64,000 nucleotides of DNA from a virus. The notes under the pieces are model-generated. The model saw nothing but the letters and a program-made list of their open reading frames with translations. It made no database searches and was not told the origin of the DNA. The position numbers and the translations under genes are program-made. Location: IMG/VR virus record IMGVR_UViG_3300020469_003811, positions 3,795-67,794 of that record; one strand, given 5' to 3'. Positions 5,560 to 55,616 of this stretch are shown here, one piece after another (the stretch's first letter is position 1; the number at the start of each line of letters is the position of its first letter).

Positions 5560-6624
5560 TTATTTGTTAGCTTGTCTACTTCTGATCATTGCTAAGATGT
5601 CGTCTGCTGATACTCCAGCGGCCGGTTTAGCTGTGTCAGTTGCCGTTGCTGTTACTGTTTCATTAACAGTTACCTGTGCAGGTGCAGGTGCTACTGGAGT
5701 AGCTACTGCTGGTTGTACTGCTGGTTGTACTGCTTCTGTTTGTACAGGTTGGGCAGGTGTAGTAGCAACAGGAGTTTCAACAGTTTTGTTAACTGTAGTT
5801 GTTGTACTAGCAGAGCTAGATGTGTTTCCACCTCTAGAATTAAAACCTGCTGGCTTATAGTATTGACCAAATCTATCTGGATCATACAGTTCACCATCTA
5901 CAGATGCTTTAAACATTTCTTGCATTACACCAAGTTCTTCTGCTGAAGGTTTCTTTGGCATAAAGTCTGAAAGATTAAACAAACCATACTGGTCTATAGC
6001 ACCTCTTTCTGATTCACTTAATGATCTTGCTTTGAACGACCAAGTAGATGTTGAATAATCTGCATAGCCACCTTTTTGTGTTTTAGTCAATTTAAAATCT
6101 CTACCTGATTCTAAATCAGTTGGTAGATCTTCCATATCAGGATTCATTAATGCTGATCTGATAATGTTAAAGATTGACGGATTAATCACAAAACGTCTAA
6201 TTGGATTTTCCGGTGTCTCTTGTTCGTCTAATGTAGAATTAACTACATAACCTTGGAAAATGTAACTTCTTTTTTTCCAATATTTTCTTCCCATATCTTC
6301 TAGTGCAGGATCTTTAAACCAAGTCCTTACTTCAGATAAAATTGGGCATGGTTCATTAAACATCTCCATACAAGGAATTTGTACTAGAGTAGGTTTTGTA
6401 TCTTGTGAACCTTTAATACCAGGAAATGGTAATTTGATCATAGCTCTTTCTTGCCAAAAGAATGTATTATCTTTATTGCCGTCTGGTAAAAATCTTAGTG
6501 TTGATGTTGTGCCTTCTGGAATATTCCAGAATGGATAAATTGCATTATCCCCTACTGTGCTACCACCTTTTTGTTTTGTTTCTTGTTCTGATAGCTTCGC
6601 TCTTATTTCTGCTAAAGTCGCCAT
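5560..6624 (-). CDS. gp32: single-stranded DNA-binding protein (T4 gp32-like)
   Basis: LRFLPD, CPI, YWKKRSY, GRDFKL.K...YADYS.S motifs; low-complexity C-terminal linker. Confidence 0.85.
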   Translation of the reverse strand: MATLAEIRAKLSEQETKQKGGSTVGDNAIYPFWNIPEGTTSTLRFLPDGNKDNTFFWQERAMIKLPFPGIKGSQDTKPTLVQIPCMEMFNEPCPILSEVRTWFKDPALEDMGRKYWKKRSYIFQGYVVNSTLDEQETPENPIRRFVINPSIFNIIRSALMNPDMEDLPTDLESGRDFKLTKTQKGGYADYSTSTWSFKARSLSESERGAIDQYGLFNLSDFMPKKPSAEELGVMQEMFKASVDGELYDPDRFGQYYKPAGFNSRGGNTSSSASTTTTVNKTVETPVATTPAQPVQTEAVQPAVQPAVATPVAPAPAQVTVNETVTATATDTAKPAAGVSADDILAMIRSRQANK

Positions 6625-6637
6625 ATTATTTCTCCTT

Positions 6638-6730
6638 TGCCTATATTAGCCTTTGTTAGCCTTTGTTAGCCTATGTTTGCCTATGTTTGTATATAATAGT
6701 GTTCAATATCATTACTAACATTAAACACTA
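6638..6730 (-). promoter_or_regulatory. gp32 leader: 15-bp GNRA-capped hairpin followed by ~5 tandem 10-nt repeats up to the SD; putative autogenous translational operator
   Basis: Minus strand TAGTGTTTAATGTTA-GTAA-TGATATTGAACACTA (6730-6697), then ACAAACAT AGGCAAACAT AGGCTAACAA AGGCTAACAA AGGCTAATAT AGGCAAAGGAG. Confidence 0.65.
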
Positions 6731-6767: not shown

Positions 6768-8633
6768 TTAAAAGTTCTTTTTAAAGGTTAACATAAAATT
6801 ACGTCCATCTTGGTTATATCCGTCTGGTCTTTCATACGTTTTGTCTGTTATATTGTTTAAAGACAACACAATATTGGTATCTTTTGCTACTTCATATTTG
6901 GTATGAAAATTGGCTACGCCTACTGCTGGTTTAGTAATTGTAGCATAAGTTGATGAATCAATGTCTAGATGTTCTCCCATATACACATATTCAAGTGAAT
7001 TGTTTGATTTACCTAGTATCCAATCAACTGCTGAAAATGATTGCCACCTAGGTCTTCTTGTAACTTGTTTGTTATTGCTGTCTTGTGCAATCGTCCAAGT
7101 CAATCCATTTCTAAGAAATACATTTTCATTTATCGTTGATGTTGTTTTTATTTCAGCACCATGTCTATTGGATTTGCCTGATGCATTAGAATATGTACTA
7201 TTACCATATGTGATCATATTATCTAAGTCTGTATCAAAATATACAAAGTCCAACGAATGATTGTTAAACTTATATTCAAACCCTATATCAATTGTTTGTG
7301 CTTCTTCTGGTTGTAAGTTAGCATTACCACTGTAACCATAGCTGTCTGCCCCGTACAGTTCGTATAACGTAGGTGTTTTTACTGCTGTTGTGTAATTACT
7401 TTTTAATTTAAAGTTATTTGTTACGGTATATACTCCACCCAATCTATAAGTTGTGTAGTCGCCAAACAAACTTGGATTGTCATGTCTTATACCTATTGAG
7501 TATAAAAAGTCTTCTCCAACATTGACATTACTGTTTAAAAAAACAGATGCATTGTTTCCTTCTTTGTCTACAGATGATGTGTATGAACCTGTGTTATTAA
7601 ACGTACCGTCAAACTGTTCATATTCAATTCCTGGGGTAAAATCAATTTCTTCATTTTGTATTGTGTTAGTAAAAATAAAAGTATTTGAATTGGAATCATA
7701 TGTATCAATTTCAGTACCATTAACATATTCTCTATCGTATTCTGTTCTAGAGAATGTAAAATTACTAAAACCTAATGAGTTATCAATTTTGCTACCAACT
7801 TGATAAAGATTCATATCACTTTTGGATGTGTAATCTAAGTCATCTGATGTGCCGCTGTCTAAGTCAGCATCACTAGTTCGTTTCATTATTGTGGTTCTTA
7901 AATCAAAACCATCATATTTACTTTCAGTATCTAATGTAAAATTGTTTGCATCAAATCCGTCTTTTTCAGTTCCAGTTGGTGCAACTGATATACCATCAGA
8001 TGTTGTTCCATCTGCTGTAAAACTAATAGAATGATTGTTGATATATTTGTGTACTTTTAAAGTTAGACTTTTTGTATCGTTAGATCCTACAGTTGTTGAA
8101 ATTGAGTTTTCGTGTTTGCCTGTAGTGATAAAGTTAATTACACCACCAACTGCGTTTGCACCAAATAGTGTTCCTTGTGAACCTTTTACAACTTGTATTG
8201 CTGTAACGTGTTTGATAAAATCAGAACCTATGTCGTGCAATCCACCTGTTGTAGAGTGATCTTTTATTGCGACACCATTTATTGCAACCATAGTATGATT
8301 AGAATTAGTTCCTCTCATGAATACTGACGTTTGTTGTCCTGTTGATCCTGATTGTATAACTGTCAGTCCGGTAATTCTTTTAATTGCTTGTACTGTGTCT
8401 TGTGTGTTTGTGTTTTGTATTGTATAACTGTCAACGTAATCTACACTCATTGATTCTGTTGTTTTTGATGTAGGATCTCTTAATACGTAAACTGTTATAG
8501 TGACAACTGGTGTGTCATCTTTTTCATATAAAGATTCTGAATTCCAATTATTTGTTTCTTCTGCATTTACGGAATTAAAAATAAATCCCCATGTAAAGAA
8601 TAGTAGTATTACAAGTATTGTCTTTTTAGCCAT
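6768..8633 (-). CDS. btuB: TonB-dependent outer-membrane receptor, BtuB-like (cobalamin)
   Basis: Signal peptide, plug motifs MRGTNSNHT..INGV and VVKGSQGTLFGANAVGGVINFIT, C-terminal GRNFMLTFKKNF; downstream of a cobalamin riboswitch. Confidence 0.8.
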   Translation of the reverse strand: MAKKTILVILLFFTWGFIFNSVNAEETNNWNSESLYEKDDTPVVTITVYVLRDPTSKTTESMSVDYVDSYTIQNTNTQDTVQAIKRITGLTVIQSGSTGQQTSVFMRGTNSNHTMVAINGVAIKDHSTTGGLHDIGSDFIKHVTAIQVVKGSQGTLFGANAVGGVINFITTGKHENSISTTVGSNDTKSLTLKVHKYINNHSISFTADGTTSDGISVAPTGTEKDGFDANNFTLDTESKYDGFDLRTTIMKRTSDADLDSGTSDDLDYTSKSDMNLYQVGSKIDNSLGFSNFTFSRTEYDREYVNGTEIDTYDSNSNTFIFTNTIQNEEIDFTPGIEYEQFDGTFNNTGSYTSSVDKEGNNASVFLNSNVNVGEDFLYSIGIRHDNPSLFGDYTTYRLGGVYTVTNNFKLKSNYTTAVKTPTLYELYGADSYGYSGNANLQPEEAQTIDIGFEYKFNNHSLDFVYFDTDLDNMITYGNSTYSNASGKSNRHGAEIKTTSTINENVFLRNGLTWTIAQDSNNKQVTRRPRWQSFSAVDWILGKSNNSLEYVYMGEHLDIDSSTYATITKPAVGVANFHTKYEVAKDTNIVLSLNNITDKTYERPDGYNQDGRNFMLTFKKNF

Positions 8634-9133
8634 GAATAACTCCTTTTAGCTGTTTCATATATTGCAAATAATACAGAAACATATAAAATAGTACTCACGA
8701 ATGTATTTTGAAAAAATGGAATAGCCATCGTGTAACACATAACTAATCCTTCTAATGTTTTTGGATACATTGTTGACGTCAACCATACAGCAAAATTTGT
8801 TATCACATAAAACATTACTGCTGATCCTACTGATACTGATGCCAAATGTGTTAAGGATTTTTGTTTTAATGTTGATGTACTTAATAGTGTACATAACATT
8901 ATACTTCCATAAACCCAAAACATCGATGAATGCATACCCAAATATAAATCAGATATAAACATCGCCACTAGTGGAATCAACATCGCTGTATAAACATCAC
9001 GGATCATGTATGGCATGAAAACAGCCATGGCTATGATTGGTGTGAAGTTAGGTGGATGTGGTATCAATCTACTTAAAGCAAGAATGCCTGAGTAGTATAA
9101 TATCATTAATAATGTTTTTTTTGTTGTACTCAT
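8609..9133 (-). CDS. polytopic membrane protein, DUF6580/ECF S-component-like putative cobalamin transporter
   Basis: SRLIPHPPNFTPI, SD, TNFAVW, CYTMAIPFF motifs; about 5-6 TM helices; first gene under the riboswitch. Confidence 0.7.
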   Translation of the reverse strand: MSTTKKTLLMILYYSGILALSRLIPHPPNFTPIIAMAVFMPYMIRDVYTAMLIPLVAMFISDLYLGMHSSMFWVYGSIMLCTLLSTSTLKQKSLTHLASVSVGSAVMFYVITNFAVWLTSTMYPKTLEGLVMCYTMAIPFFQNTFVSTILYVSVLFAIYETAKRSYSWLKRQYL

Positions 9134-9184: not shown

Positions 9185-9302
9185 ACTAGACTTTTCCAGG
9201 CCTTCATTCGACAGCGGACTGTACCGGGTGGCGCTCCGACTTTACGGTTCCTGGAAGAGCCAAGGAATTACACCTTGATTTCCCACCATGCATTTCGGTA
9301 CT
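9185..9302 (-). ncRNA. class II (AdoCbl-variant type) cobalamin riboswitch
   Basis: Minus strand GTACCGAAATGCATGGTGGGAAAT CAAGG-TGTAATT-CCTTG GCTCTTCCAGGAACCGTAAAGTCGGAGCGCCACCCGGTAC AGTCCGCTGTCGAATGA AGGC-CTGGAAAA-GTCT: GGGAA, T-loop hairpin, GCCAC box, closing GTACCG/CGGTAC stem, kissing loops TTCCAG/CTGGAA. Confidence 0.88.
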
Positions 9303-11506: not shown

Positions 11507-13114
11507 CTATATAATCATTGGCATAGGCACAATATTACCTTCACCATCTTCATCATCACGTTGTCCTAAACTTTGTTCAAATATAGGATCATATTTTGCT
11601 AAATTTCCGACTAATCTACAACACAGTAAACTAGCAGATACCAAATCATCATTTTCTCCTAATTTAGCTGAGAATGAATTTCCTTTTGCAACAAATACTT
11701 TAAGCTCTCTAATTAAGTTTCTACTATGTATTTGTAACTTACCTGTTTCAACCCAATTTTTTAATCTTGAACAAGCAGATAGTTTTGCTTTGTGTGTTGT
11801 ATTAAATCCTTTACGTTTATGTACATCACGTCTTTGTTGTCCAGCACGTCTAGGTTCATGTGTAAAGAAACCTGGAAATCTATCTTCACCCATTTCTTCA
11901 ATAGCAACAATGGCCGCTTCACCTAAAGTATTATTTTCTATAGTCCAATAAATTTCCGGTTGCGGTGTTCCTTGTTCTTTTAATTGAGTATCTAAATCTT
12001 TTAAAATACCTAGTAGTGTTCTAACTTGTCCTTGTACTGTTGTTTTGTTATGTTGCCATTCAGCTACCTGTGTAAACTCCGGTAAACTAAAAACTTGTAT
12101 TGCTGAATAATCTCCTCCTGTACCTAAACTAGGATCTAAGGCTACAACATAAGTGTTTCCTTTTCTAGGCCTTTCATACCAACGTACTTGACCTGTTTTG
12201 TATAAAGGATCTTTTCCTGCTAATGTGATTAATTTTAATCCATCGATTAGTGTTTCATCAAATGCGATAAATTCACAATCATGCTCACGTCTAAATCTTT
12301 CTTCACCTATTCTTGCACGTTCATCTTTGGCCCATTGTTCATCTCTATCTGGATGTTCTGACCAATGTACATTTATTGCTCTAAAGCCATTGATACCTGT
12401 ACCATCTCTAGTAGGTTGACCAAATTCGTCAACTTTTTTATTTGCACTTCTCCATAGTCCTGCAAACACATCGTCATCATTGTTTGGTGTTGATGTAATA
12501 ATACACTTACCACCTGTTGACAATGTTGGAGATAGTGAAGTCCAAAACTCACTGGCCTTCTGTTGTGGTTCAACGAATGCAAACTCATCCATGTAAACTA
12601 AAGATATAGACATACCCCTACCTGTTGTTTCAGTTGTGGTTTGTGCTATAATCCTAGAACCATTATCAAAATCCATTGATCCTTTATTATAACTTGTTAC
12701 TCCACATCTGATATAGTCAGGTGATTCTTCATAAGCAAATCTTACACGTTGCATGATATCCTGGGCACCTTGATATTTGTGTGCCGCAATCAATATTAAA
12801 ACATCTGGATGAAACATAGCATACCATAACAAGTATCCTGCCGCACAGGTTGTTTTACCAGTTTGCCTTGCACACATGGCGATTGCAAATCTATTATTAT
12901 TATATGTTTCTAACAATCTCTCTTGGTACTCAAATGGCTCAAATTTCATACGTCCTTTAGTAGGATGTTGAATCCACATATGATTTTTCATGAATTGCAA
13001 ATAACCAGTTTTCTTGTCAGCACATTGTTTTAGATCAAGTAACTGAGCTTCTGTATACTTGGTTTTTGCGTATGCTTTTTTAGTTAAATTTCCGTCTAGA
13101 CTTTTATGTACCAT
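11507..13114 (-). CDS. gp17: terminase large subunit (T4 gp17-like)
   Basis: ARQTGKTT Walker A, YMDEFAFV Walker B, ITSTPN, LDPS.G.GGDYS nuclease motif, NDDLV. Confidence 0.93.
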   Translation of the reverse strand: MVHKSLDGNLTKKAYAKTKYTEAQLLDLKQCADKKTGYLQFMKNHMWIQHPTKGRMKFEPFEYQERLLETYNNNRFAIAMCARQTGKTTCAAGYLLWYAMFHPDVLILIAAHKYQGAQDIMQRVRFAYEESPDYIRCGVTSYNKGSMDFDNGSRIIAQTTTETTGRGMSISLVYMDEFAFVEPQQKASEFWTSLSPTLSTGGKCIITSTPNNDDDVFAGLWRSANKKVDEFGQPTRDGTGINGFRAINVHWSEHPDRDEQWAKDERARIGEERFRREHDCEFIAFDETLIDGLKLITLAGKDPLYKTGQVRWYERPRKGNTYVVALDPSLGTGGDYSAIQVFSLPEFTQVAEWQHNKTTVQGQVRTLLGILKDLDTQLKEQGTPQPEIYWTIENNTLGEAAIVAIEEMGEDRFPGFFTHEPRRAGQQRRDVHKRKGFNTTHKAKLSACSRLKNWVETGKLQIHSRNLIRELKVFVAKGNSFSAKLGENDDLVSASLLCCRLVGNLAKYDPIFEQSLGQRDDEDGEGNIVPMPMII

Positions 13115-13134: not shown

Positions 13135-13575
13135 TTAATGACGTAGATTAAAATACTGGTTTCTATTGTCTATTCCAATAGACATATTAATGAATCTACA
13201 CAAATATTCAAACTTATCTGATAATTCAGCAAATAATTCCCCGTTTAAACCAAATTTAACGTGGCTGTAGCTACTCTTTCCAACAAATGTATAGTAAGAC
13301 ACATCTAAACCACTAGAGGCGTTGTACGTGGGGAATACACCGGTTACAAACAAACAAACATCACCCAAATCCTTTGCAGGTAATGAACTATATTTGTTTA
13401 ACTTTAATAAATTTTCTGCAAAGGATAACTTGGGTAAGAAGTCTGGCTTGTCCACAAATGATGATAATAACATCACGATGTATGCTTCGAGATGAATAGG
13501 CAGTTCTAGGGAATGAATATCTTTTGTCTCGCGAACAATGTCATAAAAGATTTTTGTGTACTCATCTCGTAACAT
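13135..13575 (-). CDS. hypothetical protein
   Basis: 146-aa ORF, YIVMLL / LGDVCLFVTGVFP segments; TAAATA-N5-ATG start. Confidence 0.6.
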   Translation of the reverse strand: MLRDEYTKIFYDIVRETKDIHSLELPIHLEAYIVMLLSSFVDKPDFLPKLSFAENLLKLNKYSSLPAKDLGDVCLFVTGVFPTYNASSGLDVSYYTFVGKSSYSHVKFGLNGELFAELSDKFEYLCRFINMSIGIDNRNQYFNLRH

Positions 13576-13590
13576 AAAAATATTTACGGA

Positions 13591-14685
13591 CTAATCACGT
13601 TTAGATATATTACAAGTTAACTTCCATTTACTATTTGAACATTTATCGTAACACAACTGCATTTTTAAACTTCCATCATTATTTCTTTTTTCAGTTTCCC
13701 ATGCATCAGTCATTTGTTTCCAAAGTCGTGAACTGGCAATTTCTTTTAATGAATATTTGGTATAGTCATTAAATCTTTTTTCAATAAAAGGTATCATCCA
13801 TGGTTCAGTTTTTTGTAACATAAGTTTAGTTGTGTCATATTCTAACGAATGCCAACAGCATGGCCAAACTCTACCATGTGAGTTTATGTATATTTTATTT
13901 TTTACAAAAGATTTGCATTCAATATCATTAGTTGGATTTTTTAAATCAATATTCAATCTACGTGCTTCTTCTTCAATTACTTTATCAACATCAGATGATA
14001 AAAAATTTCCTTCTTTTTCTCTTAATTCAATCTGTTCATCATCATAAATGTCGTCACTGTATCTGGTCGAATACTGAGGAAGAAACTTTGTAAATCCTAA
14101 TTTCTTAGCAAGTCTTTCTGCTTCATCTACTTGATGTTTGTTATGCTCAAAGACCAAATACTTCCAAGTAGCATCGCCACCAGCATTGATGTAGGCTTCA
14201 ACATTGGCTATTAGTCTATCCCAATCTACTCCTTTTCTATACAAGTGATTAGTGTCTTTTAATCCATCAATAGCAAAAGTCATTGTAGCTGGGTCACTGG
14301 CTTTTTGGCTTTCTTCTTTGCTGATTCTACCTGCTTCTTGCCAAAACTTAATAGGTCTAATACCGCCATTAGTTTCTACTTCTATTTTTCCAAAATTCTT
14401 AACACAGTACTCCCATATCTGTGGCAACTGTGGATGCATTATTACATCTCCTAAATTTCCAACAAACCAAAGCTCTACATCTTTTGATTTATTGCGGGAT
14501 GTAAAATCTAAATCTTCTCGTAATTGATTAAACACTTCAAACGGAATATGTCTCAAAGGCAACGACTCTATTGTTTTACTAGTGCCATGATCGTGTCTAG
14601 CACAATAAGGACATCCTGCATTACAATATGTTGTTGCTTCAATTTCAACTATTTCAATGTTGTTAATATCTATCTTGTTAAACAT
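13591..14685 (-). CDS. radical SAM protein with SPASM/twitch-like C-terminus
   Basis: CNAGCPYC, ETNGG, FAIDG, GRVWPCC and C..KC. Confidence 0.85.
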   Translation of the reverse strand: MFNKIDINNIEIVEIEATTYCNAGCPYCARHDHGTSKTIESLPLRHIPFEVFNQLREDLDFTSRNKSKDVELWFVGNLGDVIMHPQLPQIWEYCVKNFGKIEVETNGGIRPIKFWQEAGRISKEESQKASDPATMTFAIDGLKDTNHLYRKGVDWDRLIANVEAYINAGGDATWKYLVFEHNKHQVDEAERLAKKLGFTKFLPQYSTRYSDDIYDDEQIELREKEGNFLSSDVDKVIEEEARRLNIDLKNPTNDIECKSFVKNKIYINSHGRVWPCCWHSLEYDTTKLMLQKTEPWMIPFIEKRFNDYTKYSLKEIASSRLWKQMTDAWETEKRNNDGSLKMQLCYDKCSNSKWKLTCNISKRD

Positions 14686-14720
14686 ACACTTATTTAAATT
14701 GTGTGTGTAGGTTTTAAATT

Positions 14721-14918
14721 ATGTTATATTTTTGTATGCGACTTTTTGTATGTGTTGTATGCGATTTATGTGTATGTGTTATATATGTTGTATGCGATTT
14801 ATGTGTATGTGTTGTATTAGCTTTTGTGTATGTGTTTTGTATGTTCGCGGTCGAAATCATGGGTGTCTTGGCCGCTCCGCCTCGCGGGTGGTTTCCTTAA
14901 CTGTGTCTTAATGCTTGT
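14721..14918. repeat. bipartite element copy A: TGTATG repeat array plus GC-rich box
   Basis: 8 TGTATG in 14733-14843; perfect 28-bp direct repeat at 14753-14780 and 14786-14813; followed by CCGCCTCGCGGGTGGTTTCCTTAACTGTGTCT. Confidence 0.8.
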
Positions 14919-15500
14919 TTATTGATCTACTATAGATTGATAGTTACCAGTGTTTGTGCCAACTGCCTGTGCCGCTCTATCAAATGCACCGCCTACTTTG
15001 CCTGGTATGTCTTTTGCTTTGCCTGGATCTAATCTACTAGATAGTTCCATTTGCGACAATATGTTCAAATACAAATTTCTAATACGTACTATTTTGTAAG
15101 CATCTTCTTTAGTTTCAATGTATCCTTCCATGTTACTAAATGGCTCTCCTGATGGAATGGATTTTATTCTGTTTTTGATCACGTTTGGATCCAGCTGTTT
15201 TAGTGCCTGTGGTTGGAAACCTGCTATGGACACACCCAACTGTATATCTTTTAGATTACGTGTTAGGTCTTCAATTCCACCAATTGCTTTTAGGCCTGGT
15301 TGTCCGCCTCCACGTCTACCCATACGAAAAATTGATTCTGCTGACTTGGTAAACAACGGTTCTGACATTATGTTGAATGGTTCTTCTACACCTGCCGCTT
15401 TAAAATCATCTTGGATCTTTGCCTGTGTACGTGCCACATGATTGCCGTAATCCCTTTGTAGGATTTGTGCTATTTGTCCAGCTTCACTGATTATTGAGTC
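14919..15500 (-). CDS. hypothetical protein; possibly the -1 frameshift extension of the upstream ORF
   Basis: Frame is open from the A9 run at 15509-15501 (DSIISEAGQIAQILQRDYGNHVARTQ...); track start is a GTG at 15437 with no clear SD. Confidence 0.55.
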   Translation of the reverse strand, partial: DSIISEAGQIAQILQRDYGNHVARTQAKIQDDFKAAGVEEPFNIMSEPLFTKSAESIFRMGRRGGGQPGLKAIGGIEDLTRNLKDIQLGVSIAGFQPQALKQLDPNVIKNRIKSIPSGEPFSNMEGYIETKEDAYKIVRIRNLYLNILSQMELSSRLDPGKAKDIPGKVGGAFDRAAQAVGTNTGNYQSIVDQ

Positions 15501-36642: not shown

Positions 36643-37560
36643 TTAGCCTGCAATAGACGATTTTGCTGATGAGTCTGACCCATCTGTTGCATCTGCTTTA
36701 GCTGGAGATAGTTTAGCTTCTTGTGAAACTCCCATATCTTTTGCCGCTGGTGCTTTACCACCTGCTTCAGCTGTTGAATTAGAAATACTTGGAGCCGCCC
36801 CCATGTCTTTCATATTTGCTGATGCTACTGGTGATTTTGCTGATGAATCTGCTTCGGCTTTAGCTGGTGTCGCCACTGCTTTCATTTCCGTTGCTTCTTC
36901 TACTGCTTCTGCTTCTTTGTCTTCTGACTCAACTGCTGGTACAACTTCTTCTGTTGACTCTTCAGCTGGCATTTCCATTTCAGCTTCTGCTTCTGCATCA
37001 CCTTCTTCTTCGCCTTCACCTGACATAATTTTATCAAATTGTGCTTTAAGATCTTCTAATGCTGATTCAAGATCGTCTACTCTTTCCTCAGTATTTTCGT
37101 GATCGTGATCATCGGCTTCACCGTCTTCATCACCATCATCATCTTCATTAGTTTCTTCGTATTCAATTTCTTCAGCGTCTTCTACTGCTTTGTCTTTTAA
37201 CTCAGCTTTAAGATCAGCTTCTTGGTCACCTGTACCACCTACAGTTTCTTCAACTGCTTCTTCAGTAGTTTCTTCTTTGGCTTCTGTTGTAGCTTCTTCT
37301 TTAGCGTCTTCGTCTTTAGCTTCTGTAGTAGTTTCTTCTGTAGTCTCTTCTGCTACTGCTTCTTTTGAATCAGTAGTTTCTGCAACTGCTTCTTCAGTAG
37401 TTTCTTCAGCTACTGTTTCTTCTTGTGAATTAACGATTTCTTCGTGGATGTCTCTAGCTTTTTCAACTATTGCTGTGTGCAATAATGTTTCCGCTTTATC
37501 CTGCTCGCCGTTCACTAGAAATTCAAGCACTTGCTCTAGTTTTGAACTCATTTCTGACAT
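36643..37560 (-). CDS. highly acidic prohead core protein (start revised to 37560)
   Basis: AGGAG SD before MSEMSSKLEQ; E/A/T-rich repeats; between portal and protease. Confidence 0.65.
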   Translation of the reverse strand: MSEMSSKLEQVLEFLVNGEQDKAETLLHTAIVEKARDIHEEIVNSQEETVAEETTEEAVAETTDSKEAVAEETTEETTTEAKDEDAKEEATTEAKEETTEEAVEETVGGTGDQEADLKAELKDKAVEDAEEIEYEETNEDDDGDEDGEADDHDHENTEERVDDLESALEDLKAQFDKIMSGEGEEEGDAEAEAEMEMPAEESTEEVVPAVESEDKEAEAVEEATEMKAVATPAKAEADSSAKSPVASANMKDMGAAPSISNSTAEAGGKAPAAKDMGVSQEAKLSPAKADATDGSDSSAKSSIAG

Positions 37561-48341: not shown

Positions 48342-49421
48342 CTATTTATTCCAGCCGTACCTCTTCCAGCTGTTTGGCATCAATGCATTTAATTTTTCTT
48401 TATCTGGGTCTCCGTGTATAATCATATGTAATCTTGCTTTGTTTGAATTGTTATGTACCCAATGTATTGTGCCCACATTCCATATAAAAGCTGTGCCAGG
48501 TGCATACGGAATCATTCCCCAATCTTTAACATAAACGCCAGCACCATTTGGATTACTAATAGCTAGATTAAAACCCATGCATCTATTTTCAGCATCTTGG
48601 TGAGGTAAAATATATCCACCGGGTTCAATCCATGAAAATCTAATTCTAGAATAATTTTTTAACGGAAAATCATGCATAAAAAATCTTTTAGTTATTGGAC
48701 ATTCGTCTGCCAGTTCAGTCCAATCTGGTTTTGGTTTGGTTGGATATTTTGTTTTGTCAACACCAACATAGTCATAGCCAGATGTGATATCAGAAGCCAA
48801 ACCAAATAGTGTTGTTGCATTCCAAGTACCACCAGCTTCATCTGATCTATGCATAAGCGATTTGTTTTTTACATTAATGGCTTCCATATACATTTTTTCA
48901 TGCGGAACTTTTAAATCTAACTGTAGCCATGGGTATGGGCAGTCATCACTCTCAAACCAATTCCACAAATCTTTATCTTTTTTTGGAAAATTATATGGCC
49001 TTTCGATGTAAGCTTCTTTCCATAATTTTAACATTTTTTCTGCAGTCAAGTTTTTTACCAATTTACTATTAATATAATCCGAATTGTTATATCCTAAAAT
49101 TAATTGAAATATAGGACTTAAACCATACTTTGCTTCCAACGTAGGCATTCTTTTATTATCTATTTCATTAGGAATAAAGAAATCAATTTGTTGTTTTTGG
49201 CAATAAGACCTTACGTATTTGTTGATAGCAGATTCTCCTGGGTTACAAACGAACACCAAATCTTTCCCCTCAACAAATTTTGCTACAGAATTTTTGTTAT
49301 AAGGCATTTCCAAAAAGTCAAACTGAAATCTTTTTTCGTTTTTCAATAAATTTGCAATAGCCTCGCTCAACCTAGGACCTTCAATATGACCTATAACTCC
49401 AACTTTAATCTGCATAACCAA
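48342..49421 (-). CDS. Asp/Asn beta-hydroxylase-like 2OG-Fe(II) oxygenase with extra N-terminal domain
   Basis: RIRF..IEPGGYILPHQD ... HWVHNNSNKARLHMI. Confidence 0.75.
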   Translation of the reverse strand: MVMQIKVGVIGHIEGPRLSEAIANLLKNEKRFQFDFLEMPYNKNSVAKFVEGKDLVFVCNPGESAINKYVRSYCQKQQIDFFIPNEIDNKRMPTLEAKYGLSPIFQLILGYNNSDYINSKLVKNLTAEKMLKLWKEAYIERPYNFPKKDKDLWNWFESDDCPYPWLQLDLKVPHEKMYMEAINVKNKSLMHRSDEAGGTWNATTLFGLASDITSGYDYVGVDKTKYPTKPKPDWTELADECPITKRFFMHDFPLKNYSRIRFSWIEPGGYILPHQDAENRCMGFNLAISNPNGAGVYVKDWGMIPYAPGTAFIWNVGTIHWVHNNSNKARLHMIIHGDPDKEKLNALMPNSWKRYGWNK

Positions 49422-50058
49422 ATTTCTCCCAACTTCTTTCTAATATATCAATCCATTCTTTGTAATGTCTTTTACCATGTGCAATAATATGTAATCTAAC
49501 TTTATTGGAGTTATTAATAACTTCATGATGTTGTCCAACATCAATTAAAAATGCTACTCCGGGTTTAAATGGTACTGTGCCTTTGTTTTTAAAATTAAAA
49601 TCACAACCATCCGGATTATTAATTGCTATATTAACCGGCGTGAATGTTCTTTGTTCGCTGTCTCTATGCAAACTAATTTTTCCACCTGGTTCAAGCCACA
49701 TAAATCTTAGTCTTTTGTATTGTCTATATGGAAATTTATTTTTAAAATATTCTGTAGTAGTAGGACATTGATCAGCAATATCTGTCCATTTGTAATCAAT
49801 TTGATCTTCTGTTAAACCTTTGTTTTCTTCGTACTGTTCCCAAGCATTGGTTTTAGTAGAACTAATACCATGCAGGCAAAGACTAGACCAGCCGCCTCCC
49901 TGGCCATAATCTCTATGTGAGACAGCCTGATCTTTAACCGCTGATGCTTCTTTATAAATTTCTTCATAAGGAATATCATTAATATCTAGTTGCAAATACG
50001 GAATAGTTTTATCTTGCTCTAACCATTCCCAAATATCTTTGTCTGTGTTTGGGTTCAT
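49405..50058 (-). CDS. Asp/Asn beta-hydroxylase-like 2OG-Fe(II) oxygenase (start revised to 50058)
   Basis: RLRFMWLEPGGKISLHRD ... HEVINNSNKVRLHII; TAAATA-N5-ATG. Confidence 0.8.
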   Translation of the reverse strand: MNPNTDKDIWEWLEQDKTIPYLQLDINDIPYEEIYKEASAVKDQAVSHRDYGQGGGWSSLCLHGISSTKTNAWEQYEENKGLTEDQIDYKWTDIADQCPTTTEYFKNKFPYRQYKRLRFMWLEPGGKISLHRDSEQRTFTPVNIAINNPDGCDFNFKNKGTVPFKPGVAFLIDVGQHHEVINNSNKVRLHIIAHGKRHYKEWIDILERSWEKFGYAD

Positions 50059-50097
50059 ACACATATTTACTCAGTGCATGAACCCATTAAGTTAGTT

Positions 50098-50349
50098 TTA
50101 GATATAAAAGCGATTGTGTGATTGTTTAAAATTTATTGATGACATTTCTTCATTTAGTTTTTCGTTGTCATGTCTTGCGGCAGGATCACTGTTATATAAT
50201 GCCAACACGTAGTTTAGCATAGTTTTTGTAGTCTTTCTTGATATTTTTTTATATTTAGGCATGGATTTTGTCTCTCTGTTCTTGTTGTTAGCGAGAACGT
50301 GTGTAGCAAGTAATAATCCATTACCCAAAGATCTAAATATGTGTTCCAT
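50098..50349 (-). CDS. hypothetical protein
   Basis: 83 aa, AAGGA SD. Confidence 0.5.
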   Translation of the reverse strand: MEHIFRSLGNGLLLATHVLANNKNRETKSMPKYKKISRKTTKTMLNYVLALYNSDPAARHDNEKLNEEMSSINFKQSHNRFYI

Positions 50350-50506
50350 CTTGTTCCTTTTGTTTAATTTTTAATTGTTGATATGCATATAAACGATCTT
50401 GTTTAGACCATTCTGTTGATGCATATATCCACATAGGATCATGCTGGTAATCTTTTTCATTTGTCACCCAAATTGCATGGCAGAACTGTTTTATTATTCT
50501 TAACAT
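50333..50506 (-). CDS. small hypothetical protein (57 aa, not in ORF track)
   Basis: MLRIIKQFCHAIWVTNEKDYQHDPMWIYASTEWSKQDRLYAYQQLKIKQKEQDGTHI*; overlaps next start. Confidence 0.55.
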   Translation of the reverse strand: MLRIIKQFCHAIWVTNEKDYQHDPMWIYASTEWSKQDRLYAYQQLKIKQKEQDGTHI

Positions 50507-50658
50507 TATTACTCTTTCTTTTGCTTACGAGCCCTTCAGATTAAATCTGTGTAAGGCTACACCTTGTTTCTCAGTTGCTCCATGTTTGATATAAAGTAGC
50601 GGGAATATCCGTTACCGCAGGTATTTATAAATTGAACATTCGAACATTAACTGACGTT

Positions 50659-51009
50659 TTATTCTTTAGATAATTTGTTAAATTCTGCACAACCATCGTC
50701 GGTGCAATTATCATCCGAATCTAATTCTTTCCACTCCTTGTCATTTTGTTCATTATATTCTTTTTGAGTTTGGTGTGGTGTTTCTTCTATTTTTTCTTTT
50801 TTAAATTTTTCACAGTCTTCACTTGCAGGTGCCAATGCACAACCTAAGATGTTTGCAATAGAATCCATTTTACTAATAGTATCTAGTAAAGTTCCGCGGT
50901 CATATGAGTCCTTTTCAGCTTCTACATTTTTATTTGGAATTGTACTGCACGAAACCACAAATAAAAAAGCCGATAAAATGCTTAATTTAAGAAATGTTTT
51001 ACTAGTCAT
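50659..51009 (-). CDS. predicted lipoprotein
   Basis: Basic N-terminus, hydrophobic stretch, VVSC lipobox. Confidence 0.6.
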   Translation of the reverse strand: MTSKTFLKLSILSAFLFVVSCSTIPNKNVEAEKDSYDRGTLLDTISKMDSIANILGCALAPASEDCEKFKKEKIEETPHQTQKEYNEQNDKEWKELDSDDNCTDDGCAEFNKLSKE

Positions 51010-51032
51010 GCGTGTATTTATAAAATGATGTT

Positions 51033-52820
51033 TTAATGAATGGAAACTACTTCAACGTCTTCTGATAACGAAGTAAATCCATTTTCTTTTGTCACAGTCA
51101 ATATTGAATTTACTCTACCTGTTAACTCGTCTTTGTGCGAAATTAAGAATATGTTTTTATGTCTTTCTCTAGTCATTTTTTTCAAAATGCTCATCGACGA
51201 TTCAACACCTTGCATATCCATACCGGAATCAATTAGCTCATCAATGAATAATAAATTAATAGGAGTACTTGTTGATTCAAATATATCTCTAAATGCCCAA
51301 CTCAAACCTAATATTAATCTGTTACGTTCACCTCTACTCAAGTTATCAAAGTCCAACTCTCTACCTAGTTCTGTAATATTGACTGATAAATCAGATTGGA
51401 ATATAACTTCATGTGGTAATGAAAGCAATTCTAGATAATGATTCAATCTTTGATTCAAATACATCAAATTTTGATCAATAATTTTCTTTCTAATAAATGA
51501 ATCTTTGCTTGTTAATAACCTATATAGAAACTCTTGGTGTTCTTTGAGTTTTGTTAAGCTATTCATAAAAGCATAATCAATATCTTCAATGTTTTTTTCT
51601 TTTAATGTTTCAATTTGTTCAATATGAGGATTTTCAGCATTGTTTTCTGCTTCTAAATCTCTTTGTAAGTTCTCTAAATTTTGCTTATGTTCATATGCAT
51701 CGTTAATATTGTTATAAGATGTGCTAGGCATAGGTCCCAGATCGCCTAACTGTTGTATGCGATTTTTTGTATGTGTTATATTTTGTTGTATGTGTATGTG
51801 TTTTTCGGTGTACTGTTGTATGCTACTTTTTTTATGTGCTACGATTTTTTCGATCTCTTGACCATCCACCTTCTGCAATCCTTGTTTACATAACGGGCAA
51901 GTCTCCCCGCCCAGCTGGGTCATTTCCTCAGTTAGTGTGTCTATGCTGTCCTGTATGCCCTGTGCTTCACGCACATCATAATCCAGTTGCTTGTTTAATG
52001 TAGTACGTTCTTGTTCTTGTTCTTTCCATGTAGCTAGTGCATTATGGTTTTCAATCTCTTTGTTCATATCAATTGAATCAAGCTCACTGATAGCTTTTTT
52101 TAGTCTAGCTATGTTGTTTGTGTGCTGTTCATTCCATGCAGTACTTTTGATTTTAAACTTTCTAATAGTTTCTTCGATACGCTCATTGCTGGCCTTGACT
52201 GCTTGTATTCTCAGTTCTTCGCCTTTAATATCCTCTTTAGTAAGCCGTACTTGCTCTTTAAGACGGTCTGCTTTGTCAGATAGCCTTGTGATGCCCAAAA
52301 GCTCTTCGATCACTGCACGTTGCTCTGTAGCCTTCATAGCCAAGAATGGCATATTGTAAGTGTTCAATGCTATGATCTGCTTGAACAACGGCTGGCTCAT
52401 GCCCAGTATTCTATTAACTTCGTCTTGTGTTAGTCGGTTTTCACCCTGTGCTTCGTCGGTGTCTTTTTCGTTCACCACTTCATCATCACAGATGAATCTA
52501 AAATATGCTGGTTTTCTACCACGTTCCACTTTGTATTTTTTGCCGTCCACTTCAAATGTACAGCTCACACTCATGTTTTTTTGATTGGTCTTGTTGATCA
52601 GGTTATCACGTTTGATCTGTGTGATAGCATCACCAAACAAACAGAAGCTCAATGCATTAAGTATTGTGGTTTTACCCGTACCATTACGTGAGCCTTCACC
52701 TCCTAGGTCCAAGTTGTTACCCAACACTAGGGTAAGTCCTGGTTGATCCAGTCTAACTGCCTGTGTGGCGTTGCCCACACTCATGAAGTTTTTCATGGTC
52801 AGTGTTTTTAAAACTATCAT
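51033..52820 (-). CDS. gp46: recombination exonuclease ATPase subunit (T4 gp46 / Rad50-like)
   Basis: KNFMSVGN, NGTGKTT, CPLC zinc hook, LSRGE signature, FIDE, ISH. Confidence 0.93.
   Translation of the reverse strand: MIVLKTLTMKNFMSVGNATQAVRLDQPGLTLVLGNNLDLGGEGSRNGTGKTTILNALSFCLFGDAITQIKRDNLINKTNQKNMSVSCTFEVDGKKYKVERGRKPAYFRFICDDEVVNEKDTDEAQGENRLTQDEVNRILGMSQPLFKQIIALNTYNMPFLAMKATEQRAVIEELLGITRLSDKADRLKEQVRLTKEDIKGEELRIQAVKASNERIEETIRKFKIKSTAWNEQHTNNIARLKKAISELDSIDMNKEIENHNALATWKEQEQERTTLNKQLDYDVREAQGIQDSIDTLTEEMTQLGGETCPLCKQGLQKVDGQEIEKIVAHKKSSIQQYTEKHIHIQQNITHTKNRIQQLGDLGPMPSTSYNNINDAYEHKQNLENLQRDLEAENNAENPHIEQIETLKEKNIEDIDYAFMNSLTKLKEHQEFLYRLLTSKDSFIRKKIIDQNLMYLNQRLNHYLELLSLPHEVIFQSDLSVNITELGRELDFDNLSRGERNRLILGLSWAFRDIFESTSTPINLLFIDELIDSGMDMQGVESSMSILKKMTRERHKNIFLISHKDELTGRVNSILTVTKENGFTSLSEDVEVVSIH
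51751..51950. repeat. bipartite element copy B embedded in gp46
   Basis: 51753-51781 matches 14732-14760 at 27/29 nt; 5 TGTATG in 70 bp; CCGCCCAGCTGGGTCATTTCCTCAGTTAGTGTGTCTATGC box. Confidence 0.7.
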
Positions 52821-53821
52821 AGTCGGTTATAAATCTCTACTAGTACGTTGTTGTCAAATGTTTCTGACTCAATATGCTTCAATTGATCCAACACAATTTC
52901 ATCAACTGACTGGAACTTGATCTCTCCTTTGAAATCAATTTCGTCTTCAGCTTCTTTGTGTGGTAGTAAACTTATTTCTCTTAACGAATAAGTTTGTTGA
53001 AAATTCTCTTTGATAAAGTTGGCTTCTTCATAACTGACATCTATGTCAATTTTGACTCTTACATGACATTCCGGTTCCAAAAACTCATCTGGATTCTTTA
53101 ATAGATCACTCAAATTCAATGTTCTGTATTTTGGACCTGCTGGCCATATCTTGTATTGTGGATCTTTGTCCATTTCCAAAAACATACAACCACGATTGTT
53201 ATCCCAAGCATCTGCGTAATTGTGTGCAAAAGGATTACCTATATAAGACACATTGCCTCTGGTTTGTCTTTTGTGAAAATGTCCTGTAAACACTTGCCCT
53301 ATATTTGCAAAGTGTGATTGGTTTAGTTCTCCAATATCAGGCATCTCGACCATGGCATTCATTTTAAAGTTTGGTAATTCAAAATGACCAAACATATATT
53401 TTGCTTTGATTTTTTTAATGCCTTTCCATTCGTCACCTATCAACCATGGAATTAACGCAACATCATCTTGTACCATGATTTCGTTGACTACTTTTATATT
53501 TGGAATTTCCTCGGCAAAGACAACACTAGAGATTTCACGTTTATCTCTATAAAACAAGTCATGATTTCCAACAATGAAATACGTTTGTTCGAATGCGTCA
53601 CTCAATCGTTTGAGATTGCTGATTGAATAGTTGAGTGTACTAATGTTAATTGACGATCTATGATGATGCCAGTCGCCGAGGAAGATGCAGGTTTCTGCAC
53701 CAAACTCTTTGGCTTCTTTTATAAACCACTTCACGAAATTTTCACAATCATTATTGTGCTGTCGTGAGTTGTTTTTTAAACCAAAGTGAATATCTGTAAA
53801 ACAGGCCGCTTTTTTAAACAT
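52817..53821 (-). CDS. gp47: recombination exonuclease nuclease subunit (T4 gp47 / Mre11-like)
   Basis: TDIHFG, LGDW, GNHD, GHFE, GHFH. Confidence 0.92.
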   Translation of the reverse strand: MFKKAACFTDIHFGLKNNSRQHNNDCENFVKWFIKEAKEFGAETCIFLGDWHHHRSSINISTLNYSISNLKRLSDAFEQTYFIVGNHDLFYRDKREISSVVFAEEIPNIKVVNEIMVQDDVALIPWLIGDEWKGIKKIKAKYMFGHFELPNFKMNAMVEMPDIGELNQSHFANIGQVFTGHFHKRQTRGNVSYIGNPFAHNYADAWDNNRGCMFLEMDKDPQYKIWPAGPKYRTLNLSDLLKNPDEFLEPECHVRVKIDIDVSYEEANFIKENFQQTYSLREISLLPHKEAEDEIDFKGEIKFQSVDEIVLDQLKHIESETFDNNVLVEIYNRL

Positions 53822-53847
53822 AATTTTGCAATCTCAACTTTATTAAT

Positions 53848-53876
53848 ATTATAGTTGAAATACAACCTTTAGTCAA
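53848..53876 (-). promoter_or_regulatory. sigma70-type promoter for gp47-gp46
   Basis: TTGACT-17 bp-TATAAT. Confidence 0.75.
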
Positions 53877-53886
53877 GTGCAAATGT

Positions 53887-54759
53887 TTATTTTTTTGCCG
53901 GCCTTCCAAACATTCTTTTTTTGGGTGCAAACTGTTTTTTTGGTTGGGCATAACTTGGAATTTCACCGGCCGCAATTCTGGATTGAGCTTCGTGTTCAAG
54001 TTGTCTAGTATATGATGGATTTTGTCCTGCCTCCTGCAATAGGTCATCTCGTAAACTTTGATGTTTCTTTTCTACATTCAAGATTCTAGTGAACGAATTG
54101 GTAATGGCCGCAGTATAATATGCAAAAGGATTTTCACTTTTGAATTCATCAAATTGCAATCCAATTTGTGATAATTGTAAAAGTGCTTGAGATCTCATCT
54201 CATCATTGTAAGTGTATCCTCTCCAGTTACCTCTGGATCCATAACGTTCACAAAGTTTCATAAACATCATTGCCAATTTGTTTGTCATCTTGCCGTGATC
54301 TAAACTAAATTCATTATGAGATGCATAATGGCTTTTGCCAACTTCTTCCCATGCACCTTTATCACTTAACTTATAATGTTTAAAAGGAATAAAGTTCAAT
54401 TTGACTTTAGTATCTGCAACTGTTTTTGGATTTGTTTTTCTTTCAAAGTCATCTGGAATATGATCCCATGTAACAACCCTAATTATAACATCTGTTTCTT
54501 TAACATCTTTGGTTTTAATTTCGTGTTCTTTTACTTGACTCTTTTTTAAACCCAATTCATCAACTTTTAGTTTGGTAAGTCTGGTAGCTCGTAGACGTCT
54601 AGCCTCCATGAGCTTTGTTTTATTCATTTTTTTAATACTTTCGTGGATAATCATATCATAAGCATTGTATTCTGGTTTCACATAGAAACAGTAACTTGCT
54701 TTGGATTTATGTATTTCCTTCAGTATATCTTTATTATTTAGGTAATTTGTTCTAGCCAT
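53887..54759 (-). CDS. gp55: late-transcription sigma factor (T4 gp55-like; start revised to 54759)
   Basis: NYLNNKD.L, NWRGYTYNDEM, FD..KS.NPFAYYT, NSF.R...EKK; TTGACC-17-TATATT promoter 6 nt upstream. Confidence 0.85.
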   Translation of the reverse strand: MARTNYLNNKDILKEIHKSKASYCFYVKPEYNAYDMIIHESIKKMNKTKLMEARRLRATRLTKLKVDELGLKKSQVKEHEIKTKDVKETDVIIRVVTWDHIPDDFERKTNPKTVADTKVKLNFIPFKHYKLSDKGAWEEVGKSHYASHNEFSLDHGKMTNKLAMMFMKLCERYGSRGNWRGYTYNDEMRSQALLQLSQIGLQFDEFKSENPFAYYTAAITNSFTRILNVEKKHQSLRDDLLQEAGQNPSYTRQLEHEAQSRIAAGEIPSYAQPKKQFAPKKRMFGRPAKK

Positions 54760-54854
54760 ATTCACAATATATGGCTTTTTACCAAATTGGTCAACCTTTT
54801 TTGTATATTTTTTTTAAATTAAATACAGCTTTAAAGAAAGCTATAAATATCAGT

Positions 54855-55616
54855 ATGAGTATTAATAATGATTTTAGAGGTAAGCTACAAGCCAAGCCCG
54901 GAGCCAAGGAAGAAATATATGGCAGTAAAGATGCCACTAGTAATTTATTGGCCCCAATAGCTGAAACGAATGGTATGATAATGCCATATACTCCAGCAAT
55001 ACAAGTGCAACACGCCTCTGTAGAATATACACAATATAATATACCGCAAACAAACTTTGATTATATGGCTTATGCTAGAAGAGCCTCTCCGAGACTATCT
55101 GTTACTATGCCATTTACAGCTAACAATGTGTACGAAGCAAGATATATGTTGGCAGTTATACATTTTTTAAGAACTGTTACAATGTCATATTATGGAATAC
55201 AGAATGACAAAAGAAGAGGTGTACCACCACCAATTTTATTATTTTCAGCTTATGGTCCATATATGTTTGACAAGATACCTGTATTGATACAAAACGTATC
55301 TTTTGGTTTAGAACAAGATGTAGATTATGTTCCAGCGGGAATGCCAGCTGATTATCAAGTAGCTGAAAGCGATAGAAGTCCGGGCCACCCTGCTATGCAG
55401 ACAATGGCAAATGAAAGAAAATCAGGAGCAGACAATTTTGGTAGTATTGACCAAGCCGTACAACAAACTTATGTACCAACAGTATGTAATATTTTCATGG
55501 ATGTAGTATATGCTCCAGTACCAAGTGTACAACGAGATCAATTTGATTTAGATTCTTTTAGAAAAGGAAAGCATTTACTTAAAGGTAACAAAAATGGTAA
55601 CAGAGGATTCATTTAA
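54855..55616 (+). CDS. baseplate tail-tube cap-like protein (T4 gp48/gp54-like; start revised to 54855)
   Basis: G.I.PYTP.I, HFLRTVT..YYG, G.PPP.L.FSAYG; TATAAATA-N5-ATG. Confidence 0.65.
   Translation: MSINNDFRGKLQAKPGAKEEIYGSKDATSNLLAPIAETNGMIMPYTPAIQVQHASVEYTQYNIPQTNFDYMAYARRASPRLSVTMPFTANNVYEARYMLAVIHFLRTVTMSYYGIQNDKRRGVPPPILLFSAYGPYMFDKIPVLIQNVSFGLEQDVDYVPAGMPADYQVAESDRSPGHPAMQTMANERKSGADNFGSIDQAVQQTYVPTVCNIFMDVVYAPVPSVQRDQFDLDSFRKGKHLLKGNKNGNRGFI

Follow-up and report, generated by a model that had tools for sequence, protein, structure and literature searches.

A bipartite element in the Rad50-like gene gp46 of an uncultured phage and its intergenic counterpart

Two copies of one element

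The window analysed here, a 64,000-nt stretch of viral DNA with 34% G+C, comprises bases 3795-67794 of the 67,794-nt IMG/VR record IMGVR_UViG_3300020469_003811. On its minus strand it carries gp46 (51033..52820), which codes for a Rad50/SbcC-like ATPase of 595 amino acids and hosts copy B of the element described here. Copy A is intergenic. gp46 is matched by Pfam AAA_23 (3.2e-12) and, over residues 4-581, by SMC_N (2.5e-11), i.e. its ATPase head is of the SMC type, with one part at the N and the other at the C terminus, as in Rad50/SbcC. Two further hallmarks of such a locus are present. A CxxC zinc hook, CPLC (residues 308-311; codons 51888..51899, minus strand), sits midway along the coiled coil and between the two modules of copy B, and the hook is kept in 39 of 39 distinct gp46 homologues listed. 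Directly upstream, gp47 (52817..53821, minus strand; Pfam Metallophos, 3.6e-5) codes for an Mre11/SbcD-like nuclease that is 83% identical to the homologue on the contig G001, which itself adjoins a gp46.

The closest cultured relatives of gp46 are found in the jumbo phages PA5oct (49.1% identity over 98%), Phosso and Atu_ph07. The PA5oct and Atu_ph07 proteins are 45-49% identical to gp46, and the PA5oct match, at 49%, is a recombination endonuclease subunit. Uncultured marine relatives share 98, 75, 73, 72, 69 and about 52% protein identity; one of them is G001, a 242-kb contig estimated to be 55% complete. The jumbo-phage kinship of the relatives and the gp46/gp47 pair indicated that the window is part of the genome of a marine jumbo phage, as yet uncultured, whose recombination module is T4-like. 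A nucleotide search of deposited phages with gp46 and with copy A gave no match.

An earlier note, made from the letters alone, had claimed that a second copy of an intergenic element is hidden in gp46 in the same orientation, starting with a 29-mer match and followed by further TGTATG units. We found bases 51753-51781 and 14732-14760 identical at 27 of 29 nt, and all parts of both copies on one strand. The repeat module of copy B (51753..51850, plus strand) consists of TGTATGYG-type units antisense to gp46, which start at 51754, 51768, 51787, 51793 and 51817; this DNA codes for residues ~324-357 of gp46 including EKHIHIQQNITHTKNRIQQ. Its core is a dyad, TGTATGCGA-N5-TGTATGTGT. The repeat module of copy A (14732..14845, plus strand) has eight TGTATG units starting from 14733 to 14838, with three copies of TTGTATGCGA among them. 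All four plus-strand copies of TGTATGCGA and all seven of TGTATGTG in the whole record are within A or B.

The similarity of the repeat modules survived composition-matched controls, a check the earlier note had named. Local alignment of the repeat parts scored 71, the runner-up among 892 windows of the genome scored 34, and the match was reciprocal. None of 2000 dinucleotide shuffles reached 71 (mean 33, maximum 61). By blastn A matched B with E = 8e-11. nhmmer with copy A as a query found copy B at E = 5.3e-5 in an alignment which runs from the repeats through the box (51730-51931), and no third copy in the window. The similarity of A and B is no higher within than between genomes: copy A of the window scored 71 against its own copy B, 73 against that of G001 and 81 against that of G002. 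Concerted evolution of A and B within genomes was considered and rejected because same-genome scores are not higher.

The second module is a box. In copy B it reads CCGCCCAGCTGGGTCATTTCCTCAGTTAGTGTGTCTATGC (51907..51946, plus strand), and the other strand codes for gp46 residues ~292-305. In copy A the box CCGCCTCGCGGGTGGTTTCCTTAACTGTGTCTTAATGC is part of a tail (14846..14918, plus strand) with a T-rich end and two GC-rich hairpins (~14849-14877 and ~14870-14893). The CCGCC of the box starts at 14877 in A and at 51907 in B, 145 and 154 nt past the first repeat; the similar spacing that had been noticed, 144 and 153 bp, was thus off by a single base. The box core GGGTNNTTTCC occurs in the record, on both strands, only at 14886 and 51917. 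The earlier observation of a box about 150 bp on stood as to its presence. As a similarity in its own right it was weak: the box score of 23 was reached by 9 of 2000 shuffles (the box core by 1 of 2000) and scores of 23-25 are also present in other windows of the genome, so that the box taken alone is only suggestive.

Nucleotide-level selection on the gp46 copy

How did a noncoding motif enter a coding sequence? gp46 is collinear across the element with homologues which lack the motif, with gaps of 1-3 codons only. Its length is unchanged and thus the element is not an insertion. An inserted mobile repeat resembling a miniature inverted-repeat transposable element (MITE) was rejected since there is no extra length compared with empty sites. 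Where the motif is missing from a homologue, the residues at this position are unrelated.

A codon alignment was made with four relatives (loci L001, L010, L002 and L042), which are 72-73% identical in DNA to gp46 of the window overall. Around the hook they vary freely, and they are near base-identical over GAA AAA CAC ATA CAC ATA CAA.AA AAT AT. ACA CAT ACA AAA AAT CGC ATA CA. We then counted, at identical residues, how often the same codon was used in 20-codon windows starting at residues 321, 331 and 341. Compared with L001 the codons were identical at 8/8, 12/12 and 15/16 positions, respectively, and compared with L002 at 9/9, 12/12 and 16/16. In the rest of gp46 about half of the codons at identical residues are the same in these two comparisons. 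A synonymous scan of seven genes (the window, L001, L002, L052, L003, L061 and L063; the near-duplicates L004, L010, L054 and L062 were left out) gave the same picture. When 580 windows of 15 codons were ranked by synonymous conservation, the top 15 all started at residues 327-343. Synonymous identity in the top windows was 0.82-0.91 compared to 0.555 for the whole of gp46. The region of the element is the strongest peak in gp46, which is the outcome that selection on the motif itself had called for. The arginine codon CGC, which accounts for 1% of the 729 arginine codons in the genome, is retained in the motif in all three sub-lineages. The units occupy two reading frames, CAT ACA and ATA CA., and this two-frame reading means that there is no peptide repeat.

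The dyad is present in 10 of 39 distinct gp46 hook regions (the window, L004, L001, L010, L002, L052, L054, L061, L062 and L063). These carriers span three sub-lineages, and L003 has a decayed version. In the distant L061, L062 and L063 only the 23-nt dyad is kept, while the spacers (ATTAT, ACCTT-type) and the flanks differ. A dyad kept amid changed flanks argues for a conserved site and not for a recombination tract.

The box followed the dyad in part. Loci L001-L075 and L186-L189 (489,935 nt, both strands) were searched for GGGTNNTTTCC, and 14 matches were found on eight contigs, each of them with TGTATG units on the same strand 130-190 nt upstream. They fall in six of the ten dyad-bearing gp46 genes (the window, L004, L001, L010, L052 and L054) and in each of the three copy-A homologues. 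The 29 gp46 genes lacking the dyad have no match, and four relatives (480 kb) contributed just two further matches, neither near an array. The L001-type gp46 box (CTCAAGGGTCGTTTCCAATGACTGTTCTT) carries GGGTCGTTTCC and codes for SLETTL. The box of the window and of L004 codes for EEMTQ and is nine codons closer to the hook, with no alignment gap between. This displacement suggests that the box was gained twice in gp46 lineages. By sequence comparison, the L001-type box is an independent confirmation that the box accompanies the repeats. In all three box contexts CCC precedes GGG by 4-12 nt, compatible with a short stem. Only part of the repeat-bearing gp46 genes hold the box, which is a limit on reading the whole element as dual-coding.

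These data demonstrated that the gp46 copy is selected as nucleic acid. The earlier note had proposed dual-coding DNA with selection on the motif itself and had pointed to an overlap with the zinc-hook region and an odd stretch of peptide. Both the shuffling and the synonymous-site tests were passed and support dual coding, on the level of DNA or RNA; the peptide HIHIQQNITHTKNRIQQ beside the hook is present, and the element explains it. Taken together, it is very probable that A and B are one bipartite cis element, that B arose by substitution and not by insertion, and that selection at the nucleic-acid level fixes both the synonymous sites and the odd peptide. The note had also judged the 5' half of gp46 GC-richer by eye. 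This was borne out (0.409 compared to 0.315 in the 3' half); L004 has the same asymmetry, L001 and L002 have it in weaker form, and in the remaining 8 of 11 relatives tested it is missing or reversed.

Octamer arrays in relatives and possible functions

In relatives the TGTATGYG clusters comprise few sites on one strand, always antisense to the local genes. G001 has 20 hits (reversed-pattern control, 17): seven at 24.9-25.1 kb, five in gp46 and two upstream of a radical-SAM gene beside the terminase gene. G002 has ten (control, 7), five in gp46 and five at 64.5 kb, and G003 has 12 (control, 1), three in gp46 and seven at 5.7-6.1 kb. In G009, from a clade with 68-69% gp46 protein identity, all eight hits (control, 6) are in one array with ~20-nt spacing about 57 kb from a gp46 that lacks the motif. 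In the 52% clade five contigs have scattered single hits only. A three-unit pattern scan of viral contigs, used for the G009 array (L185), returned at least 116 stretches, mostly regular TG-rich tandem repeats as judged by spacing. A general promoter class was rejected, because there are 2-3 clusters per genome and single hits occur at control frequency. Among 62 TGTATG array units, 98% have C or T at position 7 and 90% have G at position 8; the octamer core is invariant and the spacers vary. From this distribution the intergenic arrays are the older and wider feature, and the gp46 copy arose in a single sub-clade. The deeply conserved copies are the one in gp46 and the large intergenic array, in relatives located outside the part that corresponds to the window.

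The large arrays are 57-63 kb away from gp46 and open a conserved noncoding region of 1-1.8 kb. The intergenic arrays are flanked by radical-SAM genes or by genes that match no family. The noncoding region was delimited at L073 1489-2563 (G002), L074 ~445-1654 (G001) and L185 12476-13636 (G009). It has blocks conserved across relatives, e.g. ATTCGCTTCGCTCAA and AATGGTAGGT.CGTTGTAA.TACCGCC, and lacks tRNAs, Rfam matches and any open reading frame (ORF) of at least 60 amino acids. The region could serve as an origin or be transcribed into a long non-coding RNA. Rfam searches at E up to 1 gave no match in the relatives' arrays and, in the window, only a riboswitch unrelated to the element. A tRNA scan of the window and five loci (L055 and L072-L075, including the large noncoding regions) was negative.

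Copy A lies in a gap (14686-14918) between a radical-SAM gene (13591..14685, minus strand), which starts at a distance of 48 nt from the first unit of the copy, and an unnamed ORF (14919..15437, minus strand). It is 1.6 kb upstream of the large terminase gene (11507..13114). Two protein-based scans for homologues yielded three usable upstream regions (L186, identical to L055, L188 and L189), all from close relatives, in which unit number and arrangement differ. The full copy A is seen in close relatives only. A small protein encoded on the plus strand of A or B was rejected: open frames are expected in stop-poor T/G-rich DNA, and changes in the A tail are about five non-synonymous to two synonymous. 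The radical-SAM gene is part of an island upstream of the terminase gene which is variable between the window (13135-15437) and G001 (134-137 kb). The terminase is 89% identical, the radical-SAM gene 42%; the 146-aa and 172-aa ORFs of the island have no match in G001, and G001 has at least six radical-SAM matches.

What could such an element do? The octamers may be iteron-type binding sites for a putative, probably phage-encoded, multimeric and sequence-specific DNA-binding protein. In the element an array of TGTATG(C/T)G octamers precedes a GGGTNNTTTCC box, which lies 145-185 nt further on and has a short CCC...GGG stem; every part is on the same strand. Copy B was very probably written by substitutions into the hook-side coiled coil of gp46, a part that tolerates almost any residue. 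The same putative protein would also bind the large intergenic octamer arrays of this phage group, and the gp46 site would be a secondary site of a multi-site system for control of the replication origin or fork, packaging or transcription. Iteron-type sites give the best fit to the invariant 8-nt core with its free spacers, to the G009 array with its spacing of roughly two helical turns, and to arrays that border a long conserved noncoding region. As in iterons, there are several direct repeats in one orientation, five in B, eight in A and 5-8 in the relatives' arrays. By analogy with the origins of SPP1 and lambda, which are precedents for such sites inside a gene, we prefer to read the octamers as protein-binding DNA, tentatively and with a confidence somewhat short of even.

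Several observations weigh against this. Classical iterons differ in spacing, as the units in A and B are irregularly spaced by 9-23 nt. Iteron origins are located at initiator genes, and the host gene here is Rad50-like. Copy B units are followed by T-rich spacers and copy A by GC-rich hairpins, with no clear AT-rich unwinding region beside A. Cumulative GC skew in the 242 kb of G001 tracked gene orientation and marked none of the three loci. The clade at 68-69% identity has an array but no gp46 copy, i.e. the gp46 site is dispensable in relatives. Copy A itself may be under weak constraint because it evolves fast: its identity with L188 is 0.82-0.88, compared to 0.97 for third codon positions in the flanking gene. 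The hairpin and T tail of copy A, inside a block of minus-strand genes, are one of only two terminator-like loci on the plus strand in 64 kb, and the hairpin folds with -15 kcal/mol on the plus strand and -10.4 on the minus strand, because of G-U pairs. Finally, the binder and its roles at an origin, pac site or operator are hypothetical, as are the roles put forward in the earlier note (multiple origins, pac sites or genome-organising sites).

The hairpin data would suit a plus-strand RNA unit, the main rival reading. Copy A would then encode a small RNA that combines a body of UG-rich repeats with two hairpins and a tail rich in U, and copy B would be an antisense unit or the target of A, with gp46 as the regulated gene; discrete plus-strand RNAs would start just past the TGTGTTATATT strings and end at 14893-14900 or 51920-51930. 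We consider this unlikely, yet it has several points in its favour. A transcript of A would equal the antisense strand of gp46 at 27 of 29 nt and so be complementary to gp46 mRNA. Two modules in the same orientation inside 200 nt suit a transcription unit. In a manual count over four aligned, close A sequences the pairs of hairpin 1 were kept on the plus strand through G-U changes, with one broken cell compared to seven on the minus strand. By eye and unscored, the dyad and the next hexamer can be read as TTGTAT-N18-TATATT with TGTGn, and PA5oct has host-type promoters and abundant non-coding RNAs (PMC7318152). However, the intrinsic-terminator signature of a GC-rich hairpin and U run, present at A on the plus strand, is absent at B, where no stable hairpin precedes the T-rich stretch (0 terminator-like sites; fold z-score -0.85). 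In hairpin 2 the changes in L188 break one pair on either strand, and the alignment comprises only four closely related sequences for a structure first predicted on the plus strand. A sigma-70-type promoter scan found no site at A or B. An extended -10 reading of the arrays was not supported, as ten such strings occur in 68 kb of this AT-rich genome, mostly within genes. G001 has the gp46 box and no A-type box elsewhere, and there is no Rfam match.

Might the similarity reflect history instead of function? Copy A could be a decayed ectopic fragment of gp46 or the product of gene conversion between A and B, and the identity among gp46 genes could come from recombination tracts. Indeed, A aligns to the gp46 antisense strand beyond the repeats: the score of A from L186 against gp46 of L001 was reached by 1 of 500 shuffles, that of A against B in the window by 2 of 500. 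Read in the direction of gp46 the box of A is GAA ACC ACC C, that of gp46 in L001 GAA ACG ACC C. Copy A is plastic and fast-evolving, and over residues 331-350 the identity of L001 and L002 is 100%, which would be expected of a recombination tract. Against this, L061-L063 keep the dyad alone in different surroundings, as expected of a conserved site; the rare CGC codon persists, the two codon positions of the box are not homologous, unrelated intergenic arrays are built from the same octamers, and A-B scores are no higher within the genome (71) than across genomes (73 and 81). A relic or gene conversion may account for how copy A arose. It leaves the frozen synonymous sites, the rare codon and the displaced box unexplained, and as an account of the whole we regard it as improbable.

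Even less probable is a function on the sense strand, with CA-rich units (CRCAUACA and A tracts) as a binding site or translation signal in leaders and inside gp46 mRNA. Four arrays are indeed located just upstream of the start of an opposite-strand gene, i.e. the radical-SAM gene of the window, that of G001, a second one of G002, and a 79-aa ORF of G001. These genes have no Shine-Dalgarno sequence and, read directly, TAAATA 5 nt ahead of ATG. But no start codon is conserved after the gp46 array, where methionine in the window corresponds to alanine in L004 and lysine in L001, and we know of no RNA-binding motif which fits the CA-rich units. Protein-level selection for a His/Thr-rich peptide near the metal site, or a chance match of low-complexity DNA which is T/G-rich in both regions, can be set aside as most improbable given frozen synonymous sites with a 1% codon, a non-coding copy A, unrelated residues in homologues and a score not reached in 2000 shuffles.

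It is possible, though on the doubtful side, that gp46 of these marine jumbo phages was overwritten at least twice independently, with the box at two different codon positions, and hosts a working secondary site of a multi-site genome-control system (a secondary origin, a fork barrier, or a pac-type partner for synapsis with intergenic arrays close to the terminase gene), or else an embedded antisense RNA gene which tunes gp46. If true, a site of this kind would physically tie the control of replication or packaging to the gene that starts recombination-dependent replication. The element over the hook-proximal coiled coil of this phage Rad50 is a real and selected bipartite cis element, of a kind already known as signals embedded in coding DNA. 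Such signals are rarely found in uncultured phages since annotation stops at the protein. Here about 30 residues of a Rad50 coiled coil are shaped by a family of 8-nt motifs, which keeps synonymous sites frozen across deep divergence and turns up again in arrays between genes. Next to the hook, the coiled coil of Rad50 has enough freedom of sequence to take up foreign information. If a binder or a transcript came to light, it would offer a first approach to sites of replication, packaging or regulation in a group of marine jumbo phages that is widespread. Literature searches on synonymous constraint and embedded elements in bacteriophages, and on direct repeats and origins in jumbo phages, returned no such element in a phage Rad50 gene among the papers listed (10 of 3,563 and 12 of 234, respectively). 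A search on TGTATG phage promoters returned no such motif in the titles and opening lines of abstracts of 14 papers.

Elsewhere in the window other features were observed. About 1 kb downstream of gp46 is an Asp/Asn beta-hydroxylase-like gene (49405..50064, minus strand; Pfam Asp_Arg_Hydrox, 9.9e-12). Twenty-four sequencing runs, 17 of them recorded as RNA, match part of the stretch with shares of at most 0.16; these are contig-level matches without strand or ends. In metatranscriptome contigs from four runs compared with 49000-55000 depth was highest at 50.0-50.6 kb, but contig depth cannot rank genes. An AdoCbl-II cobalamin riboswitch (9221-9301, minus strand; 93 bits, E 1.9e-22) is upstream of a DUF6580 gene (8609..9133, minus strand) and a TonB-dependent receptor gene with plug and beta-barrel (6768..8633, minus strand); the homologues of both genes in G001 are 62-66% identical. 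An uptake cassette for the outer membrane under the control of B12 thus appears to be present in the phage. A 10-nt tandem repeat, GCCTATGTTA, with about five copies (6639-6687) immediately precedes the Shine-Dalgarno sequence and start of a gene (5560..6624, minus strand) for a gp32-like single-strand DNA-binding protein. It may be a leader or operator array, for which the autoregulation of T4 gene 32 is a parallel. At 37116-37422 long imperfect tandem repeats of 12, 24 and 39 nt (GCTTCTTC-type) in an apparent minus-strand coding region are probably an acidic or Ala/Glu-rich low-complexity protein segment.

Comparison with known systems

T4-type phages put origin and packaging signals in coding sequences, and dispersed homologous short sequences serve one protein. 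Examples in T4 are the origins ori(34) and ori(uvsY) as well as 24-bp pac-like sequences located in genes 16 and 19. T4 origins consist of a middle promoter and an unwinding element and not of octamer arrays. The window is similar in that a signal resides in coding DNA and that copy A is close to the large terminase gene, 1.6 kb upstream. It differs by its octamer arrays, at which a promoter or binding of terminase would be hypothetical.

For PA5oct, the nearest cultured relative, host sigma-70-type promoters and four abundant non-coding RNAs are described (PMC7318152). Copy A resembles such RNA genes in having a hairpin and U tail on the strand opposite to its neighbours. It differs from phage small RNAs in that there is no similarity to an Rfam family, copy B has no terminator and expression is putative.

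The lambda origin is in the middle of gene O and has four 19-bp iterons (PMC3985674). Common to both is a direct-repeat array in frame within a replication or recombination gene, i.e. coding DNA is used twice. The lambda iterons are 19 bp long, regular and within the gene of the initiator, whereas here 8-nt cores are irregularly spaced by 9-23 nt and copies exist outside of the gene, too.

A resemblance in layout exists with phage SPP1. There, oriL is within gene 38 and oriR is intergenic, both have direct repeats together with an AT-rich region, both are bound by gp38, and a fork-stalling role was proposed for the second site (PMC6316719). In SPP1 the host gene is that of the origin-binding protein itself, here it is Rad50-like; the second module of SPP1 is an AT-rich unwinding element, here a GC-containing box; and in SPP1 the function is proven, with one protein binding to both sites, while the element described here is known from its sequence. 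What the two have in common is the architecture: two dispersed sites, each with direct repeats followed by a second module, one in a coding sequence and one intergenic.

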